NCBI GenBank assembly: GCA_965219575.1
Contig: OZ244779.1
Location: 1,516,769 to 1,580,768 of the forward strand
Direction of reading: 5' to 3'
DNA length: 64,000 bases
From: Candidatus Oxydemutatoraceae bacterium
Lineage (GTDB): Bacteria > Pseudomonadota > Gammaproteobacteria > Poriferisulfidales > Oxydemutatoraceae
Shown here: positions 19,645 through 51,764 of the stretch, one piece after another
How positions within the stretch are numbered: position 1 is the stretch's first letter
How the letters are laid out: the number at the start of each line of letters is the position of its first letter
Position numbers and translations under genes: made by a program
Notes under the pieces: generated by a model
Databases searched by the model: none
The model's input: only the letters and a program-made list of their open reading frames with translations
Told to the model about the DNA's origin: nothing

Positions 19645-21189
<1,545 letters not shown>

Positions 21190-21290
21190 AAATTTAAAAC
21201 TTTCGAGTTTTTGCCGGATTTTGCCGAAGCTCTATCCGAGCAAAATGGGTTTAATCGACTCAACGCAAGCGCCCACACAAATCTTCTATG

Positions 21291-42875: not shown

Positions 42876-43664
42876 ATGGGTATTTTAGACAATAAATATG
42901 CGTTGGTCACCGGAGTTGCCACCAAACATTCTATCGCCTGGGGAATTACTCAAAGTCTGGCACGCGAAGGTGCGCACATTGCGCTGAGCTATCAAAACGA
43001 AAAATTAAAAAGTCGTGTAGAGAAACTTGCCGAATCGTGCAACGCCGATATGATACTACCGTGCGATGCGCAAAACGACGCCGAAATAGATTCGTTATTC
43101 AAACACTTGAAACAAAAATGGCAGCGTTTGGATGTATTGGTACACTCCATCGCTTATGCCCCGCGTGAAGAATTGACCGGTGAATTCGTAGAGCAAAGTA
43201 CCAGACAAGGTTTTAATATCGCCCACGAGGTTAGCTGCTACAGCTTGGTTGCACTGGCACAACATGCGAGAACGATGATGCAAGGCGGCGAAGCCGCAAT
43301 GCTGACACTGAGTTACTTAGGGGCCGAAAAAGTCGTGCCGAACTACAATGTGATGGGCTTGGCAAAAGCGAGCCTAGAAGCTGCGGTGCGCTATTTAGCG
43401 GCGGGACTCGGCGGCGACGGTATACGCGTCAATGCAATTTCGGCAGGTCCTATAAAAACTTTGGCGGCATCGGGTATCTCCGGTTTCCGAGATATGCTCA
43501 ATTATGTAGAGAGAAATGCACCGCTGGGCAGAAATATCACCATAGAAGAAGTCGGAAATGTAGGTGCTTTTTTGTGTTCCGATCTGGCGCGGGCGATTAC
43601 CGGTGAAATTATACATGTAGACTCGGGCTATCACTTGCTGGGTATGAACAAGACTGCCGATTGA
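42876..43664 (+). CDS. fabI: Enoyl-ACP reductase
   Basis: [38 protein letters not shown]; start set at MGILDNK. Confidence 0.96.
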
Positions 43665-43695
43665 ACCGGTAGGTCAATCGGCGTGACATTGTACA
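43649..43695 (+). repeat. CCGATTGA…TCAATCGG palindromic element (GTGACATTGT-tailed variant) supplying the fabI stop codon
   Basis: GCCGATTGAACCGGTAGGTCAATCGGCGTGACATTGT; close match to 58850-58897. Confidence 0.75.
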
Positions 43696-43740
43696 GAATT
43701 TGACCATGATTGCTAAACGCATACATTGCAAAATGCGTGA

Positions 43741-43786
43741 GCCACCCCTCCAAAGGAGGAGAATAGTCTGGCTCAATCGGCAATTC
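43741..43786 (+). repeat. CCCCTCC/GGAGG hairpin repeat followed by half of the CCGATTGA palindrome
   Basis: GCCACCCCTCCAAAGGAGGAGAATAG (compare 52227-52252), then GGCTCAATCGGCAATTC. Confidence 0.6.
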
Positions 43787-44306
43787 ACTGTAGAGGACCT
43801 TCCAGAAATACTTTGCTACGGATACAAAGAGCTGCGTTCTCAGGAACAATCCTTACTGTGGCAGCCCGTACAGAGTAATTGTTACTAGGAGGAAATGTTA
43901 TAACCAATGAGGCACTACACCTACTACCTGAGTCTATAGTAGGAATTGGAATACTCAATTCTCTGAAACTCGAAAAAATTATAACACTTGGACTTAAATT
44001 AGGCTGAATATAGCTTCCACCTCCCGAAAGTTGAAACGTTAATGTTTGGAAGGGGATGCTGAATCTCGGATTGATATTCACAATGACTGTCATCGTAGTG
44101 CCCGCTACAACGGTAGTCGGTGTGGTGCTGATAGTCAGCGTAGGCACATTTTGTGCGGCATGTCAACCCAAAGTAGAAATGTCACCCCCTTGACCAAAGT
44201 AGAAATGTCACCCTTGATGCCGATAAAACCTTCAGGAAACTAGATATCTAAGATTACTTTATGTCCGTTAGTTGATTATTCGACTAGGTGATAAATTGGC
44301 TAATAC

Positions 44307-44573
44307 TGCTTGTTTTTGCCTAAATCAGGCTTGCCGACTAAAAAACAAGCCCCATAGCGTGCCGTTAAGAGACGATCTCTAGTTGAGATGAACTCTACTA
44401 CCTTCCAATTTCCAAGCATTTTAGAGCGTATGCGGTGCCAGTGCTTGTTTTTGCCTAAATCAGGCTTGCCGACTAAAAAACAAGCTCTATAGCGTGCCGT
44501 TAAGAGACGATCTCTAGTTGAGATGAACTCTACTACCTTCCAATTCCCAAGCATTTTAGAGCGTGTGTGGTGC
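44307..44573. repeat. 135-bp-period tandem duplication in the non-coding 3' arm of the IS
   Basis: TGCTTGTTTTTGCCTAAATCAGGC…CAAGCATTTTAGAGCGT starts at 44307 and again at 44442, with a few substitutions. Confidence 0.92.
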
Positions 44574-44669
44574 TCGGTTGCTATCTCGTGGTTTGACGAA
44601 TGATGCGTTTGCAGTGGCACAGGCATGTTAGACAGCCTGTGCGTAAGTCTGGGAAAACACCGGTTCTGA

Positions 44670-45980
44670 TTACTTCTGCTTGGCACTGAGATAATCCTTA
44701 TTGTAGCGTCTCCACGGGTGGGTCGGCTTCGGCTTATGACCGCGACGGTGTTTTGCCACAATCTCATCTACCGCTAGATTGATTGTTTTGTCGTTGTACG
44801 GTTGAGACAGTGGGGGGTGTTCGCAGTAGATATCATGCGCCAACTCCCGCCCTTTGTAGAGTATGACAATCTCGCCATTGAGTAGCTCGCACACGGTGAC
44901 CGATGCGCCACGCATCGCATAACCGGGTTTCTTGGTTTTGATAAGATACTGTATATTATGATGCTGACAGATGAGGTTTTTCGATAACTTTCTAGTACTC
45001 TGTTTAGACAAAGCCAGTGCTAATTCTCGCTGGGTGAGAGGCATTTTGCGATGATAGTCGTGGCTGTCTAGAGGCTTCGTGGCGAACTGCTGATTGTGTT
45101 TTGGGAGATACCATTGAGCAAACTGGTTAGCTTCCTCAATAGAGCAGATGTTGTGAAGCCTCATGAGTTTGACCCATCGGTCTTGCAGGGTTTTGAATGC
45201 GCGTTCAACGCGTCCTTTAGCTTGCGGTGTGCGTGCCAGGCATAGTTCAATTTCCATTTGTTGCAAAGCACTTTGGAACTGGGTCGGTTGTTGAAAGATG
45301 TGTTGCTCTTTGGCATTGTTGCTAAAGATGCTATGGCGGTCGGAATACAGGCACAACGGGCAGCCATGGCGTTGGATATGCTGTTTGAGTGTTCGCATAT
45401 AATCAAAGGTGGTCTCGGCAGCACAGAAATGCAATGCGGTAATCTGTGAGGTGGCATCGTCAATAAATATAATGAGCGTGCAGGGGTCGCCTCGCCCTTC
45501 AAACCAATCGTGGGTCGAACCGTCAATCTGTATGAGTTTGCCGAAGCCAGTTTGTCTGGGACGGCTTTGATGCGTTTTGATTGCATTGCGTCGCTTACCC
45601 TGGTGTAGCCCCTCTGCAATCATCCACTTGCGCAAGGTTTCAACGCTGAATGAGCGGTCAAATAAATGCCCATGACATTCAAACAACTGCTCATGTGCAA
45701 AAGTCGGTCCGAAATCGTGATAGTTCTCACGAATGAGCTTAACGGCTAGTTGTTTGATTGTCTCCGGTATTTTATTGTTTGAAGGCTTACCGCGTCGTTT
45801 AGATATCAGTGCCTTGATATCTTGCTTGCGATAGGCACTTAATAATCGCTTCACATGGCGGACGCTGATGTTGAGCATCTGTGCGGCCTTGGCTCTCGGT
45901 AATTTTTCCTCCAAGCATCGCTTGAGGACATGGTGGCGTTCTATTTCTTTGTCTGACATAGAGTAAGTTCCTTCGTTCAT
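44670..45980 (-). CDS. DDE transposase (ISNCY/IS1202 type)
   Basis: N-terminal HTH, IQIDGSTHDWFEGRG, LYSDRHSIF, PQAKGRVERAFKTLQDR. Confidence 0.93.
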   Translation of the reverse strand: MNEGTYSMSDKEIERHHVLKRCLEEKLPRAKAAQMLNISVRHVKRLLSAYRKQDIKALISKRRGKPSNNKIPETIKQLAVKLIRENYHDFGPTFAHEQLFECHGHLFDRSFSVETLRKWMIAEGLHQGKRRNAIKTHQSRPRQTGFGKLIQIDGSTHDWFEGRGDPCTLIIFIDDATSQITALHFCAAETTFDYMRTLKQHIQRHGCPLCLYSDRHSIFSNNAKEQHIFQQPTQFQSALQQMEIELCLARTPQAKGRVERAFKTLQDRWVKLMRLHNICSIEEANQFAQWYLPKHNQQFATKPLDSHDYHRKMPLTQRELALALSKQSTRKLSKNLICQHHNIQYLIKTKKPGYAMRGASVTVCELLNGEIVILYKGRELAHDIYCEHPPLSQPYNDKTINLAVDEIVAKHRRGHKPKPTHPWRRYNKDYLSAKQK

Positions 45981-46155
45981 TGCATCTTCTCCTAAGCTGG
46001 GTTAAAAATGCTTTATTGTCCCCTAAAGGTGACATTTCTACTTTGGCGAAAGGTGACATTACTACTTTGCGCTTACACACATTTTGTGCGGCAGCTATAT
46101 CTGCAAAGCACGCGAGCAGTATACACAGAACGATACGAGTGCAGTTTATTCTCAT

Positions 46156-46773
46156 TTAAGGTTTGGTGTCGCGATGCTTGAGTATTTTATCTACGATGCC
46201 GTATGCGAGTGCCTCTTCCGCGTCCATAAAATTGTCGCGCTCGGTGTCGCGACGGATTTTAGTTATCGTTTGTTTGGTATGCTTGCTCAATAACTGATTC
46301 AGCTTCTCTCGTGTTTTGATGATTTCTTTGGCGTGTATGTCTATATCGGTGGCTTGACCCTGAAATGCACCCATCGGTTGATGAATCATCACTTTGGAAT
46401 GTGGCAACAGATGACGTTTGCCGCGTGCACCCCCTGCCAACAGGACAGCCCCCATGCTCGCCGCCTGTCCGACGCACAGCGTACTGATCTCGGGGCGTGT
46501 AAATTGCATCGTATCGTAGATTGCAAGACCCGCCGACACCGAACCACCCGGCGAGTTGATATAAAGAGAGATTTCCTTATCCGAGTTTTCCGATTCCAAA
46601 AATAGAATTTGGGCAATGATCAAGTTTGCCATATGGTCGTTGATCGCACCGACGACAAAAATCACGCGCTCTTTGAGCAGTCGCGAATAAATGTCGTAGG
46701 ATCGCTCACCGCGAGCACTTTTTTCTACTACGATAGGTACTAAATTTAATGCGGTTTCTTCGTGTGAGTTCAT
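46156..46773 (-). CDS. clpP: Clp protease proteolytic subunit
   Basis: [30 protein letters not shown]. Confidence 0.98.
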
Positions 46774-46782
46774 TTCAGCTCC

Positions 46783-48087
46783 TCATTGCGTTTTTTCCAT
46801 GTCCATAAGTTCGTAAAAAGGGTATGCTTTTTCGCTTATATTTGCTTTTTCGATCACATAATCGATGATTTTATCTTCCAGCACCATCGATTCCACTTTA
46901 CGGTAAGCCTCGACACTGCCATGGTAGTAGTTTTTCATACGCTCGGGATCTTTGTAGCCTTCTACCAGCTCGTTAATTTTAGCCTCGCGTGCGCTACGAT
47001 CGATTTTGAAAAAGTTTTTTTCGTTAATGTAAATAAACAAGATATCCAAACAAACTTTACGCTCTGCGGTTTTTTCGAATAACTCGTCGGATATATCTTC
47101 ATTGACATAATTCTTACCATCCTTAGCTAGGATTTTTTTCATTTTTTCAATTTGCTCTTTCATCATCGCCGGAGGTGCTTTTATGTTAGCGTGGGTCAGC
47201 ATTGCATTTTCTACATTCGTGCGACGTAGTTGCGAGAGCTTTCTTTTGAGTTCCCACTCCATCCCCTCGCGCAGCGAGCTACGCAAAGCATCCACCCCGC
47301 CCTCTTCGATATTACACGCTTTGAAAAAATCGTCGTCCAGTTCGGGCAGAACCGCCGTTGCCACCGACTTCAGAGACACTTCGTAGCGCATGGCCGTTTT
47401 ATCCGAGTCTGCGGTATCTACGGTTTTTTGATCGATCTTCTCTCTCAAGCTGATTTCTTTTTTTTCACCTGCGCGCATATTTTCAATCTGCCGATCGAGA
47501 CGCTCGCTCATCAGCTTCGAACCTAAGATATAGCTTTTATCGTCAAACACTTTTATAGGTTTCTTATCGGTTTCCACGATGTTCACATTTATAGTCACCT
47601 TGTCGCCGACGCACGCCGGTCCGTCTTTGACTTGCCATGTAGCATGATTCATGCGCACCCGTTCCACCATAGTGTCTATATCTTTCTCGGTAATCTCACA
47701 GATCGGCTTTTCAATCGTGATATCCTCATAAGTATTCAACTGCAAATCGGGTAGCACTTCTATATAAGCCGTGTAGTGGATGCCTTTATCCGTATCTATC
47801 TCTATGTCTTCAAAAGAAGGATTGCTCAAGACGAAAAAATCGTGTTGTTTCGTTACTTCTTCGTAACTCTCGTACAATAAGGTATTGACAACATCGGCTT
47901 TTACTTCTGCCCCGTAATAACGTTTGATTATCTCCAGCGGTGCCTTGCCCGGCCTAAAACCCTTGATCTCGGCAGTGGTAGACAGTTTACGAAGTTTTGC
48001 ATCGATCCGTTCGTTAAAATCCGCCGCCGGAATATCAATATGGAGTTTGCGCCCGAAAGTATCTATTTCTTCTATTCTACAATTCAT
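46783..48087 (-). CDS. tig: Trigger factor
   Basis: GFRPGKAP ribosome-binding motif; directly upstream of clpP. Confidence 0.92.
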   Translation of the reverse strand: MNCRIEEIDTFGRKLHIDIPAADFNERIDAKLRKLSTTAEIKGFRPGKAPLEIIKRYYGAEVKADVVNTLLYESYEEVTKQHDFFVLSNPSFEDIEIDTDKGIHYTAYIEVLPDLQLNTYEDITIEKPICEITEKDIDTMVERVRMNHATWQVKDGPACVGDKVTINVNIVETDKKPIKVFDDKSYILGSKLMSERLDRQIENMRAGEKKEISLREKIDQKTVDTADSDKTAMRYEVSLKSVATAVLPELDDDFFKACNIEEGGVDALRSSLREGMEWELKRKLSQLRRTNVENAMLTHANIKAPPAMMKEQIEKMKKILAKDGKNYVNEDISDELFEKTAERKVCLDILFIYINEKNFFKIDRSAREAKINELVEGYKDPERMKNYYHGSVEAYRKVESMVLEDKIIDYVIEKANISEKAYPFYELMDMEKTQ

Positions 48088-48129
48088 TAAACCGATATGT
48101 TTTGAGTGGTTATTATAACCTTAAAACGA

Positions 48130-48212
48130 TGCGGAAGGAGAGACTCGAACTCTCAAGGGAATATCCCACTGGCACCTAAAGCCAGCGCGTCTACCAATTT
48201 CGCCACTTCCGC
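48130..48212 (-). tRNA. tRNA-Leu(TAG), CCA not encoded (followed by TCG)
   Basis: GCGGAAGTGGCGAAATTGGTAGACGC…loop TTTAGGT…long variable arm…GTTCGAGTC…CTTCCGCA. Confidence 0.93.
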
Positions 48213-48264
48213 ATCGCTTAAAAATAGCTTATTATAATTGATTATTCCGACGATAACCGACTCG

Positions 48265-49152
48265 ATGCGCCTATTTCTGCTTTTTCTATTTTCCGTATTG
48301 CTTGCCATCGTAGGCAGTAGCTTGGTTGCGCAACCGCTCTATGAATTATTAGACATTGACAATCTAATCGATTTCGACAACTTCGGGAAGCGGTTGGCGA
48401 TGCTGGCAATTTTACTGACGATTGTCGCAATACTCAAGTTCAAAGGTTTGCTGGATCAGAAAAATGTAGGCTGGTCGGTGAATGAAAACCAAACACGACG
48501 CGGATTATTATTTTATGGCTTCGTCGTAGGTATAGCAATGATGCTACCCATCGCTTGGCTGTTTCATCTAACGGAACTTCGGGTTTTTAATCTTGCGCCG
48601 GACTTTGTCTGGGGTTCTTTTGTAGTCAAGTTCGCATCGCTACTACTCGCCGCCTTTGCGGTTTCTTTAATAGAGGAAACTTTTTTCAGAGGCGTTCTGT
48701 TCGGTGGTTTTCTGAAAGACAAAACACCGCTATTTGCGGTATTATTAACTGCCCTGTTCTTCGCAGTGATACACTTCGCACGCATCAAGGGAAGCGAATT
48801 GCCCGCCGATGCACCGTGGTATTACGGTTCGGTGATACTCGCCGACAGTATCGCAATGCATTGGCACGGCGACTATGCCGCAACGGCACTCAGCCTTTTT
48901 TTAGCCGGCGTATTGCTGGGCATCGTGCGCTTAAAGACCGCAAGCGTATGGGCTTGCATCGGCATACACAGCGGATGGATATTGACGCTCAAGGTCGATA
49001 AAAAATTATCCTATTTCAACGAACAGTCCGATTGGAGTTTTCTGGTCGGAGCGTACGATTCGTATAACGGTTGGGCAACCGCCGGCTGGTTGGCGATTAT
49101 CTCTCTTATCTACTTTGCCGTTGCCATCTATAGAAAGGCTAGCGGTTCATGA
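48265..49152 (+). CDS. CPBP (CAAX/Abi) family intramembrane glutamic endopeptidase
   Basis: IEETFFRG, FFAVIH and IGIHSGW motifs in a multi-TM protein. Confidence 0.88.
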   Translation: MRLFLLFLFSVLLAIVGSSLVAQPLYELLDIDNLIDFDNFGKRLAMLAILLTIVAILKFKGLLDQKNVGWSVNENQTRRGLLFYGFVVGIAMMLPIAWLFHLTELRVFNLAPDFVWGSFVVKFASLLLAAFAVSLIEETFFRGVLFGGFLKDKTPLFAVLLTALFFAVIHFARIKGSELPADAPWYYGSVILADSIAMHWHGDYAATALSLFLAGVLLGIVRLKTASVWACIGIHSGWILTLKVDKKLSYFNEQSDWSFLVGAYDSYNGWATAGWLAIISLIYFAVAIYRKASGS

Positions 49153-49444
49153 TATTGCTTTTATAGAAATACCATCGCTTGCCCATCAACTGCCGCACCG
49201 CTTCGTCGTTGCGATAACGTCTGCGCAACAAGCGATACACAAAATAAGGAATATTGTAAAAAACAAATGCCAGAAAAATCATCACCAAACCGACGATCAC
49301 TTTGTATTCATCCAACAACGGAATCTCCGCCCACCAAAATGCTAATCCGACCAAGCATATGACGGCAGCCAACGAGAGTGTCAAACAGCGATTATAGTAA
49401 TCGTGTTCGCGTTTGAGATGTTGTAATCGTTTTATCGAATCCAT
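49139..49444 (-). CDS. Small two-TM hypothetical protein
   Basis: MDSIKRL… with two hydrophobic segments; start trimmed to avoid overlap with the upstream gene. Confidence 0.6.
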   Translation of the reverse strand: MDSIKRLQHLKREHDYYNRCLTLSLAAVICLVGLAFWWAEIPLLDEYKVIVGLVMIFLAFVFYNIPYFVYRLLRRRYRNDEAVRQLMGKRWYFYKSNIMNR

Positions 49445-49470
49445 CTTTACCGTACCACCGCCTTTGATTA

Positions 49471-49941
49471 CTAGAGCTTCTGCAAATAATCGGTCAACAA
49501 TGCTTTGGTATATGCGTAAGCATCGGGCTGTTTGCTGGCACGAGGTCCGGCGATATTCAAAGTCTCGGGTTGAATACGGCGAGTAAAGCTCAACACTTCG
49601 TCGACCGCCGATGAAAATTGTACGGCATTTGCATCTATCGTTAAAACCGGCTTGGCTTCTTGATTGCAAAATTCAACCGTCAACTCGGTGCCACCTTCCA
49701 GTCGATCAAAATAGATAATCACGGTTGCATCGCTATCCGACACATTGCGCAAAGTACGCCGAATATAATCCCCTCCCACAAGCTCTTTTAGAGGATAGTA
49801 TGAAGCAATTATACCGTCTTCGGCTAAACGTCCTTCGGGACACCAGCCTCCGCATGGTATTGCCAACTCCAGCGCAACATCCAAAGCTGCCCTATCGACA
49901 CCCGTCTGCCCACCGGAAATAATGATGATATTTTTTTTCAT
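49471..49941 (-). CDS. Putative molybdenum carrier (SLOG-fold) protein
   Basis: IISGGQTGVDRAALD, GWCPEGRLAEDG, RTLRNV, LNIAGPRAS. Confidence 0.88.
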   Translation of the reverse strand: MKKNIIIISGGQTGVDRAALDVALELAIPCGGWCPEGRLAEDGIIASYYPLKELVGGDYIRRTLRNVSDSDATVIIYFDRLEGGTELTVEFCNQEAKPVLTIDANAVQFSSAVDEVLSFTRRIQPETLNIAGPRASKQPDAYAYTKALLTDYLQKL

Positions 49942-49983
49942 AGCCGTAGTGGCTATTTTACAATACTCTACAAGGACAGACCG

Positions 49984-50025
49984 TTCGCCTCCTATGGAGA
50001 GGAGTAGAGCTATTGAAAAAGTGCT
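49984..50025. repeat. Degenerate CCTCC/GGAG hairpin plus a lone MITE TIR remnant
   Basis: TTCGCCTCCTATGGAGAGGAGTAG, then AGAGCTATTGAAAAAGTGCT (compare GGGGCTGTTGAAAAAGTA). Confidence 0.5.
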
Positions 50026-50037
50026 GGTATCGCACAC

Positions 50038-50078
50038 TAGAACCGCCGATTGAGCCGGTAGGTCAATCAGCGATTCTA
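50038..50078. repeat. 41-bp TA-flanked palindromic element overlapping the stop codon of the secreted paralog
   Basis: TAGAACCGCCGATTGAGCCGGTAGGTCAATCAGCGATTCTA. Confidence 0.8.
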
Positions 50079-51308
50079 CTGGAGAGGACCTTCCAAAAAC
50101 ACTTTACTACGGATACAAAGGGCTGCGTTCTCCGGAACAATCCTTACTGTGGCAGTACTAGGATCACCTATAAAGTAACCGGTAACAACACTAGGATCAG
50201 GACGGATTGTTATAGTTAATTCAGCACTACACATACTACCCGAGTCAATAATGCTAATTTTGGCAGAACCTTCTTCCACACTTTGCGGAAGTGCAACTCT
50301 TATTACTGGATCATCAAGATCAACATAGCTTCCACCTCCGGAAAGTTCTATCTCTACTAATACTGAGGATGTGAGTGTTACATTGGCAGTTATTGTGGTC
50401 GTCACCGTATCACCCGGCATAACGATTCTCGGTGCGGTGATAGTCACCGTAGGATCATTATCGGTGATGAGGAGTAGACCATTACGACATGAAGCACGAT
50501 TATCGGGAACATTGGTCGGCACTTCGCTTGGATTTTGTGCCACTGATATATCAACCTGATCGGTCTGCCTAATTTCTACTATATCGTCGTCCACCACCAG
50601 ATTATTCAAAAGAAAGTGTGTTTGTCCGGCTCTGATAGTCAAAGAGTCGATGGCATTAATATCGGCACGCGATGCACTACCTGAAAAGTCATATGTAAGT
50701 GAGGCTGTGACATCTCTATTCAAGCCTTTGCTATTATCTTCACTCTCTCCTCTTAAGAGGTTGATCTGCGGGATATCGCCAAAACCATCAACATTGCTAC
50801 CTTCTTGTATTTGATAACCAAATTTAGAGAAGCAGAGTATGTATTCGTCGTCCAATACGGTCACCGAATCATTAGCAAGTCCTGCGATTGAAATTTCTAT
50901 GGTTTTATCGGCATTGAGTCTTCGGTTATCGTTCAATTTTAATTCAAATCTCGCAGTTTGCGAACCTTGCCGAAAAGAAATAATATTATTATAAGTTGAA
51001 GATTGGACGACCTCAGTCCCTAAAGATACACCGGGTCCGCGTACTAAACTTAAACTATTAAAGTCTCCCGCTTCAAAACCACGGATAGCAAGATTTAGGG
51101 CAATCATTTCGGTGCCGGTGAGCCTACGATTTAAGGTGACATCAAACGGTATCGTCGCACCGACCAAAGAACCTTGGACTAGATTGCCTTCGTAGTACTC
51201 GTCTCGATCAGCCGATATCGTAGCTGTTACCGATTGCTGTGCGACGGCTGTATCTGCAAAGCACGCGAGTAGTATACATAAACCTATAAGTTTGTAGTTG
51301 ATTCTCAT
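50076..51308 (-). CDS. Secreted beta-sandwich (Calx-beta/Ig-like repeat) protein with conserved C-terminal KVFLEGPLQ motif
   Basis: Signal peptide ending AVA-Q; domain ends SVTVLDDE and LLITDND; last domain and termini shared with 43785-46155. Confidence 0.75.
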   Translation of the reverse strand: MRINYKLIGLCILLACFADTAVAQQSVTATISADRDEYYEGNLVQGSLVGATIPFDVTLNRRLTGTEMIALNLAIRGFEAGDFNSLSLVRGPGVSLGTEVVQSSTYNNIISFRQGSQTARFELKLNDNRRLNADKTIEISIAGLANDSVTVLDDEYILCFSKFGYQIQEGSNVDGFGDIPQINLLRGESEDNSKGLNRDVTASLTYDFSGSASRADINAIDSLTIRAGQTHFLLNNLVVDDDIVEIRQTDQVDISVAQNPSEVPTNVPDNRASCRNGLLLITDNDPTVTITAPRIVMPGDTVTTTITANVTLTSSVLVEIELSGGGSYVDLDDPVIRVALPQSVEEGSAKISIIDSGSMCSAELTITIRPDPSVVTGYFIGDPSTATVRIVPENAALCIRSKVFLEGPLQ

Positions 51309-51411: not shown

Positions 51412-51425
51412 CTCTCGAAACCGAA

Positions 51426-51764
51426 AGGCGAGTTGGTCTATAAGCCGGGTTCTGTTTCGGCAGCCATCCATCTGGGATATATGTCGCCATATACCTCTAG
51501 CGGTTTACCCGAGAGTCTGCGCGGGCAACGCATAACGCTCTCCTATTCAACCTTGCTCCAAGTGGGGTTTACCCTGCCACCGATGTTACCATCGGCGCGG
51601 TGTGCTCTTACCACACCTTTTCACCCTTACCTCCGAAACGAGGCGGTATCTTTTCTGTGGCACTTTCCATGGACTCACATCCTCCAGATGTTATCTGGCA
51701 CCCTGCCCTGCGGAGCCCGGACTTTCCTCTATGTGTTGCTCATAGCGACTGCCCGACCAACTCC
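51426..51764 (-). ncRNA. rnpB: RNase P RNA, class A
   Basis: Minus strand GAGGAAAGTCCGGGCTCC, GGAAAGTGCCACAGAAAA, GGTAAACCCCAC and ACAGAACCCGGCTTA; P1 ends GGAGTTGGTC/GACCAACTC. Confidence 0.96.

Follow-up and report, generated by a model that had tools for sequence, protein, structure and literature searches.

A short conserved C-terminal peptide on giant secreted adhesins of a gammaproteobacterial sponge symbiont, a candidate docking or sorting label

Introduction

C-terminal sorting signals decide which exported bacterial proteins remain on the cell surface, and those that are well understood fall, to our knowledge, into two kinds: tripartite signals that span the membrane and are handled by a sortase-like enzyme of their own, and folded domains. 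Here we analyse a peptide of 12-14 residues (hereafter the tag) that closes two genes in a 64,000-nucleotide stretch of DNA (the window; contig OZ244779.1, positions 1,516,769 to 1,580,768) of a Candidatus Oxydemutatoraceae bacterium (assembly GCA_965219575.1; a 2.37-Mb genome denoted G000, the other G-numbers standing for related genomes), and that recurs in this genome as a modular end of about fifty secreted proteins which have little else in common and often are giant adhesins. The tag is selected as a peptide, is nearly always terminal, and is found on signal-peptide proteins at the position of an anchoring module. We consider that it serves, with a probability of roughly 55%, as a modular and lineage-restricted C-terminal docking or sorting label that is read in trans after Sec export.

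The tripartite CTERM signals (GlyGly, PEP, MYXO and LPXTG types) are, like the tag, short, lineage-restricted and placed at the extreme C-terminus of Sec-exported proteins, with many unrelated passengers. However, in these signals a transmembrane helix follows the motif and a basic cluster closes the protein, whereas in 47 of the 49 tag-like frames of G000 just three residues (x-L-x) follow FLEG, and the ends read PLQ, PLR, ALE and similar. An earlier note on this DNA had described the tail as devoid of a transmembrane helix or basic cluster, unlike the PEP-CTERM, GlyGly-CTERM and LPXTG signals, and of a terminal aromatic residue, and this description was upheld: no NCBIfam CTERM family matched 16 proteins that bear the tag (hereafter carriers) at E<=0.1, or three tails at E<=10. 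As for a cognate enzyme of the CTERM type, the distribution of the CPBP, S41 and YkuD families does not follow that of the tag (no search was made for sortases, exosortases or rhombosortases).

Dockerins, which dock non-covalently, are likewise small C-terminal modules on diverse secreted proteins, but they comprise about 60 residues with calcium loops, whereas the tag is limited to 12-14 residues and lacks D-x-D-x-D-G loops. The substrates of the type IX secretion system (T9SS) of Bacteroidota resemble the carriers in that giant adhesins and proteases have a Sec signal at one end and a second signal at the C-terminus; in that system the C-terminal domain is cleaved off and the cargo becomes attached to lipopolysaccharide (LPS). 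That domain, however, is a folded beta-sandwich of 70-100 residues, whereas the tag is a gammaproteobacterial peptide of 12-14 residues that AlphaFold2 (AF2) models as coil, and its tails have no Pfam match. The beta-signal of outer-membrane proteins (read by BamA) and the pilin strand of chaperone-usher systems are, as is the tag, amphipathic, strand-like and situated at the very C-terminus, and both are read by strand augmentation; the beta-signal, in contrast, ends in an aromatic residue on a beta-barrel, whereas the tag ends in Q, R, E, K or N on arrays of beta-sandwiches or beta-helices. Finally, the RTX adhesins secreted by type I systems (LapA and SiiE types) resemble the carriers in being giant and repetitive, with their information at the C-terminus. 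Type I substrates lack Sec signal peptides, unlike the carriers (signal-peptide-like N-termini in 38 of 45), and no RTX nonapeptide family was detected by Pfam in the last 650 residues of the carriers.

Results and Discussion

The tag in the source genome

In its general form the tag consists of the final 12-14 residues, phi-R-phi-R-x-[KR]-V-F-L-E-G-[PA]-L-x-COOH, with the consensus I-R-I-R-x-K-V-F-L-E-G-P-L-Q-COOH in G000, where F, E and G are invariant in all 38 aligned tails. A six-frame search of the genome for cores of the type [KR][VIL]F[LIVP][EQ]G returned 49 tag-like frames, so that the tail is not limited to the two copies on which the earlier note was based. In 47 of the 49 the stop codon follows immediately (TAG in 23, TAA in 19 and TGA in 5), the open frames upstream extend over 13 to 16,060 residues (the longest tagged open reading frame, ORF, counting 16,069 amino acids, aa), and the tag frames together amount to 148,538 aa, or 18.8% of the genome DNA. 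Further ends of a more degenerate kind (RVLLEGALTR, RVLPEGLLR and RLFPEGLLNP) are also present.

The 32 copies that read exactly KVFLEGPLQ before the stop are encoded by 28 distinct 27-mers, and their pairwise identity, 0.977 at codon positions 1+2, falls to 0.522 at position 3, for which the codon usage of the genome predicts 0.416; their flanks have pairwise identities of 0.32 and 0.28. On account of these near-random third positions, varied 27-mers and unrelated flanks, together with the use of three different stop codons, we conclude that selection acts on the tag peptide. The tag is one of the most strongly conserved peptides of the genome; no model of Pfam or NCBIfam matches it, and the strings VFLEGPL, FLEGPLQ, VFLEGAL and KVFLEG do not occur in the searched literature.

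Sub-types of the tag follow paralog families. A tandem series of giant paralogs (5,772-5,916 aa; G000:C1:1232414-1331804(+)) ends throughout in RVFPEGLL[RKL], and five copies of this type are spaced about 18 kb apart in the related genome G003.

The two tagged genes of the window

In the window, the tag closes a 410-aa gene (copy 2) and a shorter paralog (copy 1) that is split by an insertion sequence (IS; Table 1). Once the IS is taken out a 145-aa frame is restored, of which an intact 151-aa ortholog (P0053) is found in another assembly. Several features reported in the earlier note were confirmed, i.e. the near-identical signal peptides of the two genes (read from the sequence as MRINCTRIVLCILLACFADIAAAQ and MRINYKLIGLCILLACFADTAVAQ), the LSGGGSY and IDSGS.CSA motifs (present in the alignment) and the identity of the last 25 residues, whose codons agree at 69 of 75 nucleotides (nt), all six differences being synonymous. 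The note had taken these 25 residues for one functional unit, and here the comparison with orthologs led to a different delimitation: the general unit is the last 12-14 residues. In the orthologs of the 410-aa protein (P0020 and P0021, 75-76% identical) the 13 residues that precede the tag differ (they are identical between the window paralogs only), and the invariant columns of the alignment (A1) are those of the tag IRSKVFLEGPLQ and otherwise T289 and I290 alone.

At the nucleotide level, the window pair agrees at about 50-70% of positions within the last domain and at 69 of 75 in the tail, and the high identity extends some 14 nt past the stop and reaches a hairpin that resembles repetitive extragenic palindromic (REP) elements. 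Judged from these sequences, the two genes share a 3' tract of roughly 95 nt that goes back to conversion or to a recent common origin, which is why the pair is identical over 25 rather than 12 residues. The claim that selection maintains the 25-aa peptide accordingly stands for the general tag, for which the codon statistics speak (the tag of copy 2 being one of the 32 exact copies), and is weakened for the 13 preceding residues, whose identity is due in part to the shared DNA tract and not to selection alone. The note's proposal of a disulfide tether through two conserved cysteines found no support either: in the 75-76% identical orthologs S and Y replace these cysteines, and the basis for such a tether as a general feature is thereby removed.

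For the 410-aa protein, AF2 predicts three beta-sandwich regions (mean predicted local distance difference test score, pLDDT, 65; alignment of 10 sequences), and a Foldseek search with this moderate model retrieved the CBD12 tandem of NCX1/CALX (E 2.4e-8, TM-score 0.42) and also protocadherins. Pfam has no match for the protein itself, and two of its paralogs match Calx-beta (E 2e-9 and 1e-7). The fold, as modelled, is a tandem of Calx-beta/cadherin-like domains.

The REP-like hairpin (CCGATTGA-loop-TCAATCGG) is a genome-wide repeat that lies directly 3' of many tag stops; at 50002-50103 (the repeat after the stop of copy 2) the summed contig depth runs into the thousands, and contigs confirm the presence of the locus. 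Such hairpins, the inserts resembling miniature inverted-repeat transposable elements (MITEs) that likewise occur directly 3' of tag stops, and the ~95-nt tract that spans the stop codon in both window copies are what one would expect if the tag were a DNA-level artefact, i.e. a mobile or converted repeat that happens to be translated. We regard this explanation as scarcely tenable, as it is at odds with the near-random third positions (0.522 against 0.416 expected), with the 28 27-mers among 32 copies, the three stop codons and the unrelated flanks, and with the fact that the other tag-bearing genus encodes the same peptide with codons of a 64% GC type. A DNA-repeat origin is thus refuted for the tag in general and holds only for the extra 13 residues of the window pair, and the hairpin is no part of the protein signal. 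Downstream of copy 1 (43640-43784), the hairpin is interrupted by a MITE-like insert of ~90 nt, which is flanked by a 9-bp duplication GCCGATTGA (43773-43781 and 43674-43682).

Carrier proteins and position of the tag

The families recognised in the last 650 residues of 38 carriers comprise GLUG, cadherin-like (PF12733), Big_9, Big_2, Calx-beta, PKD-like and P_proprotein; nine of the 38 have no family match in this region, and a subtilisin-type protease is among the carriers. An N-terminal hydrophobic signal region is present in 38 of the 45 carriers of at least 100 aa, and 32 of these 38 have a cleavage motif of the A/Q type. We rejected A/Q cleavage as a carrier-specific mark, since it is shared by numerous secreted proteins that lack the tag. 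Such ends are very frequent genome-wide (cytochromes and periplasmic proteins included) and would leave Gln as the mature N-terminus; they recall the 'Q-rule' of Bacteroidota signal peptides.

As the earlier note had anticipated, searches with the tail gather many proteins with unrelated N-termini and a strictly C-terminal match: 47 in the genome and, among public proteins, 71 of 71 word-index matches and 132 of 136 matches of a profile search (1.84 billion cluster representatives, E<=0.001) have the tag at the extreme C-terminus. As carriers end in beta-sandwich or beta-helix domains and the tag alternates in a strand-like manner, it could be argued that it is a structural or folding cap, which would cover the edge strand of the last beta-sandwich or prevent aggregation and would have no sorting role; the protein P0022, in which the tag lies just five residues past the last Calx-beta strand with no terminal domain in between, would fit such a cap. 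However, the tag follows at least six folds and, in one case, a bare signal peptide; AF2 places the last strand of the 410-aa protein at residues 385-390 and leaves residues 391-410 as an unpacked coil; the homologous adhesins of the tag-less genome G005 (see below) use other ends; and the invariance of F, E and G (38/38) would be unusual for a generic cap. Taken together, these observations render a cap improbable, and, as at least six domain families precede the tag, they speak against the objection foreseen in the earlier note, namely that the tail is simply the final strand of a known domain.

Distribution among relatives and in public data

We surveyed 41 genomes, 19 of the family and 22 of three other families. 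The tag was found in eight of the 19 family genomes (G000-G004, G007, G017 and G018), which belong to two genera (five of five genomes in genus g1 and three of five in genus g4), and a relaxed pattern returned no tag in the other four genera of the family (nine genomes) or in the three other families (22 genomes). Reversed-pattern controls over the 41 genomes gave no match with the strict pattern and two with the relaxed one. The exact nine residues with their stop occur, among the 41 relatives, in four of the five genomes of genus g1; among 185,579 species (one genome each) they occur in 26 stretches, all of them from three records that bear the title uncultured Candidatus Porisulfidus sp.

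The last residues vary with the lineage: the copies of G000 end mostly in PLQ, all 15 of G002 (the fifth g1 genome, relaxed pattern) in PLR, all 12 of G017 and all 11 of G018 in ALE, and the seven of G007 in ALQ, SLQ or ALN. The carriers of G007 (1,158-3,329 aa, with Cadherin_4, Cadherin, Big_9, Calx-beta or no family) end in FRIRVFLEGALQ despite having no BLASTP match at E<1e-5 in G000. Among the public profile matches, the end tripeptides are PLQ (83), PLR (25), SLQ (5), ALQ (5) and others.

Other C-terminal ends in a tag-less sister genus

The sister genus represented by G005 (64% GC; the whole contig was analysed) encodes giant proteins with signal peptides (ORFs of up to 17,496 aa) whose repeats are homologous to those of the G000 carriers (BLASTP E down to 1e-64), and the tag-like motif is absent from every frame. 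Nineteen G005 ORFs (1,384-17,496 aa) end in a dockerin-like module with a double calcium loop, which is absent from G000; for some of these giant adhesins homology to G000 carriers was demonstrated in the passenger part. Its motif reads ..DRNGVIDERDE..VDADVDFDGEVLSADRYF.. (loci L095-L213, e.g. L123:9225-9884(-) and L133:3252-3911(-)). Three of four tested ends matched Dockerin_1 over model positions 1-53 of 57 (E 2e-4 to 8e-3), the best score in G005 (22.0 bits) lying just below the cut-off of 22.9, and no cohesin was found in G000, G005, G010 or G007. Five ORFs share a second conserved end, ..FYMPSANV.. (..FYMPSANVSLDE.LVSSDF..), for which the two ORFs tested gave no Pfam match, and in some of the longest a Gly-rich stretch leads into a hydrophobic helix and a closing Arg cluster, an arrangement that appears GlyGly-CTERM-like by eye although a script pattern matched none of them. 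Moreover, in four G000 carriers the domain that precedes the tag gave matches to the pre-anchor region of M36 models that depend on rhombosortase and myxosortase (E 1e-6 to 1e-11, far below the whole-protein cut-offs). Given the other ends of the G005 homologs and these M36 matches, the tag occupies the position of recognised anchoring or docking modules on related proteins.

Three large secreted proteins of G000 (C1:97399-100092(-), 960381-963353(+) and 2241568-2246022(-)) have GlyGly-CTERM-like C-termini in which a Gly-rich stretch is followed by a hydrophobic helix and a basic cluster, two of the three with weak matches to PVV_CTERM, GG_III and MprA_tail; classical tripartite signals thus appear to coexist with the tag in this genome.

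Such a position would also suit a motif that is recognised by a C-terminal processing enzyme or transpeptidase, for which V-F-L-E-G would be the recognised part and x-L-x the leaving group, the new Gly carboxylate being released or ligated to an amine of lipid, LPS or peptidoglycan (cf. sortase, rhombosortase, PorU and butelase-type enzymes). Known transpeptidases use short leaving groups, and exactly three residues follow FLEG both here (47/49) and in public data, where 128 of the 132 C-terminal matches end in such a tripeptide; these three residues vary by lineage (PLQ, PLR, ALE, ALN, LLR) with F, E and G invariant, the tag holds a GlyGly-CTERM-type position on related domains, and the coexisting GlyGly-like tails make envelope transpeptidation plausible. 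We nevertheless rate processing as unlikely: CPBP, S41, YkuD and the candidate o556053 (see below) do not track the tag (sortase, legumain-type and C25 families were not searched for), and the internal variants of the motif, which have domains after them, would be cut in two.

Proposed role and search for a reader

We favour the docking or sorting label. The tag, an amphipathic, cationic and strand-like peptide that passes into a G-P/A turn with two residues after it, is carried by Sec-exported giant beta-sandwich/beta-helix adhesins, by small Ig-like proteins and by subtilisin-type proteases, and would be read in trans once its carrier has reached the periplasm. There it would bind a common receptor, probably by beta-strand augmentation, and this binding would route or tether the carriers to the cell envelope or surface, so that the tag would do the job of the dockerin-like or GlyGly-CTERM-like ends on the homologs of relatives. 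The outcome of such reading by a partner would be surface retention rather than transport. For the passage across the outer membrane, the type II secretion system (T2SS), which is present in every family genome searched (its marker GspC in 12 of 12 family genomes, and in none of eight genomes of the tag-less families), is the likely route; it is the most plausible one given that neither an usher nor any Omp85 other than BamA was found. It is possible that a general component, or LPS itself, acts as the reader.

Several observations weigh against this reading, foremost among them that no reader was found among the machinery families and candidates profiled. The earlier note had suggested looking for transport or protease families that co-occur with the tail, and of those profiled none tracks the tag. 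The neighbourhoods of 44 G000 carriers contain nothing recurrent besides repeat-derived ORFs and IS, and in G007 housekeeping genes flank six of the seven carriers. Additional members of Omp85/TpsB/TamA were discarded (exactly one match, BamA, in each of the five g1 genomes), and Usher PF00577 had no match in five genomes (an E. coli control matches). Secretins (four per genome in G000-G003 and six matches in G004) were dismissed because their counts overlap with those of tag-less relatives, GspC because tag-bearing G007 and tag-less G011 hardly differ in its PDZ region, and the CPBP protease because its gene is split by a TGA in tag-bearing G001, has two stops in G011 and is intact in tag-less G006. 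S41 peptidases (one match per genome searched, two in G004) show no correlation with the tag, and YkuD transpeptidases number four everywhere, tag or no tag. Subtraction against G005 (493 of 1,774 ORFs without match; 239 single-copy non-carriers, 86 with a hydrophobic segment) yielded candidates of which three that were profiled (o556053, o481195 and o531324) do not follow the tag; G002 and G007, although tag-bearing, lack the S8-like o556053.

To these negative results must be added the behaviour of the motif itself. A variant, VRA[KR]VFLEGAL with a Gly linker, stands internally or N-terminally in three proteins, i.e. in one right after the signal peptide and before two FGE-sulfatase domains, and in the other two at residue 287, ahead of parts that resemble propeller, FN3 and LRR domains, from which it follows that a free C-terminus is not strictly required. 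Furthermore, the last residue is not uniform within G000, G001, G003 and G004, where sub-families end in LLR or PFR, and the uniform ends of G002, G017 and G018 could stem from shared descent or gene conversion, not from co-evolution with a receptor; conversion is visible in the window pair. The structural support from AF2 is, finally, moderate (pLDDT 65, 10 sequences).

Two further explanations bear on the same results. A self-sufficient membrane- or LPS-binding tag, in which the cationic amphipathic strand (I-R-I-R-A-K-V-F) would hold proteins on the outer leaflet through anionic lipid A or core, would account both for the fact that no machinery gene tracks the tag and for the motif at N-terminal or internal positions. 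Alternating basic/hydrophobic strands bind LPS (motifs of the Limulus anti-LPS factor type), and the phi-R-phi-R-phi-K alternation is found in both genera (IRIRAKVF here; FRIRVF or MRIKVF in G007). On the other hand, the invariant F, E and G and the fixed three-residue end exceed what charge or amphipathicity would need, and the window copies have only two basic residues (C-I-R-S-K), and we therefore see such direct binding as quite unlikely. That the tag is a host-directed ligand on adhesin ends, read by a sponge receptor (e.g. against digestion), appears very improbable to us: proteases and small proteins are tagged too, a ligand would not need the exact C-terminus, and no known eukaryotic motif was recognised in the tag (no search aimed at one was made), even if a host ligand would suit both the share of adhesin-like carriers (18.8% of a reduced genome) and the failure to find a bacterial reader among those profiled.

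Secretion loci, mobile elements and neighbouring genes

The secretins of G000 belong to the T2SS, to a type III secretion system (T3SS) and to two type-IV-pilus-like clusters; the T3SS comprises a YscC-type secretin, YscD, CesT- and TPR-type chaperones and export-gate genes. In G001, G003 and G004 a carrier is located 2-4 kb from the gene of an MSHA-like secretin, and since this gene is also found in every tag-less genus we take the proximity as synteny. The candidate o556053 (G000:C1:556053-557156(+)) encodes a secreted S8-like protein of 367 aa that is 99% identical between G000 and G003 and 64-68% identical to the copies of G001 and G004, and it sits in an island of genes absent from G005; the identity pattern and the island suggest a recent transfer within the genus.

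The IS that splits copy 1 is present in eight copies in the genome, at 99.6-100% identity. The 16-bp direct repeat around it is unusually long, and a tandem 132-nt repeat lies inside the element, close to one of its ends. The RNase P RNA (51425-51764(-)) is located directly upstream of the 410-aa gene, and the window also contains a 16S rRNA gene (19646-21190(-)) and the only Omp85 gene (BamA) of the genome (25236-26210(-)).

Table 1. Coordinates of the tagged genes, of associated elements in the window, and of loci elsewhere in the source genome (marked G000:C1). Slashes mark the cleavage site.
Feature	Position	Strand	Description	Basis
410-aa secreted protein (copy 2)	50076..51308	-	predicted tandem Calx-beta/cadherin-like beta-sandwiches and terminal tag	ORF, AF2, Foldseek, orthologs
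Sec signal peptide of the 410-aa protein	51237..51308	-	signal peptidase I type, MRINYKLIGLCILLACFADTAVA/Q	sequence; AF2 helix 5-18
General C-terminal tag of copy 2	50079..50114 (stop codon 50076-50078)	-	IRSKVFLEGPLQ	alignment A1
Pre-tag 13 aa of copy 2	50115..50153	-	ATVRIVPENAALC, predicted final beta-strand of the terminal domain and linker	AF2, orthologs
C-terminal piece of the split 145-aa paralog (copy 1)	43785..44144, in the ORF 43785..44147 (tag 43788-43823, stop codon 43785-43787)	-	last domain and tag	ORF
N-terminal piece of the split paralog	46078..46155	-	signal peptide MRINCTRIVLCILLACFADIAAAQNV	ORF; ortholog P0053 begins alike
Insertion sequence splitting the paralog	44161..46077	-	1.9 kb; terminal inverted repeats, 16-bp direct repeat TGCCGCACAAAATGTG	
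IS transposase	44670..45980		436 aa, helix-turn-helix (HTH) and rve	Pfam HTH_29 and rve
REP-like hairpin	50044..50072	-	CGCTGATTGA-loop-TCAATCGGCG, directly 3' of the copy 2 stop	sequence; genome-wide repeat
CPBP/Rce1-type intramembrane protease gene	48238-49152	+	between the two tagged genes	
Internal-variant protein	G000:C1:1796419-1800531	-		
Internal-variant protein	G000:C1:1308343-1313601	+		
Internal-variant protein	G000:C1:1918093-1923426	-		
T3SS/T2SS/type-IV-pilus-like secretion loci	G000:C1:2263228-2271160, 170844-175654, 221068-223833			

Implications

In its widest form, our proposal would make the tag part of a new envelope-sorting or docking system of Gram-negative symbionts, with a reader outside the sortase, exosortase, rhombosortase, T9SS, Omp85 and usher families and with a tag that is interchangeable with the dockerin-like ends of the sister genus; this is possible, and we hold it with considerable doubt. 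If this wider reading is true, about a fifth of the coding capacity, including adhesins of 13,000-16,000 aa, would be directed to the surface by a non-membrane peptide of 12-14 residues, and the family would possess a plug-and-socket arrangement for mounting giant adhesins on the outer membrane. The tag is neither a tripartite signal nor a folded domain, yet it marks nearly all giant adhesins (19% of a reduced symbiont genome), and its reader, if it can be found, would explain how megadalton adhesins exported by Sec are mounted on the outer membrane of a gammaproteobacterium when autotransporter barrels, two-partner channels and type I secretion play no part. Moreover, the tag on one side and the dockerin-like end on the homologous adhesins of neighbouring genera on the other would constitute a natural experiment in signal replacement, and the tag would offer a one-line sequence rule for the surface proteome of uncultured sponge symbionts.

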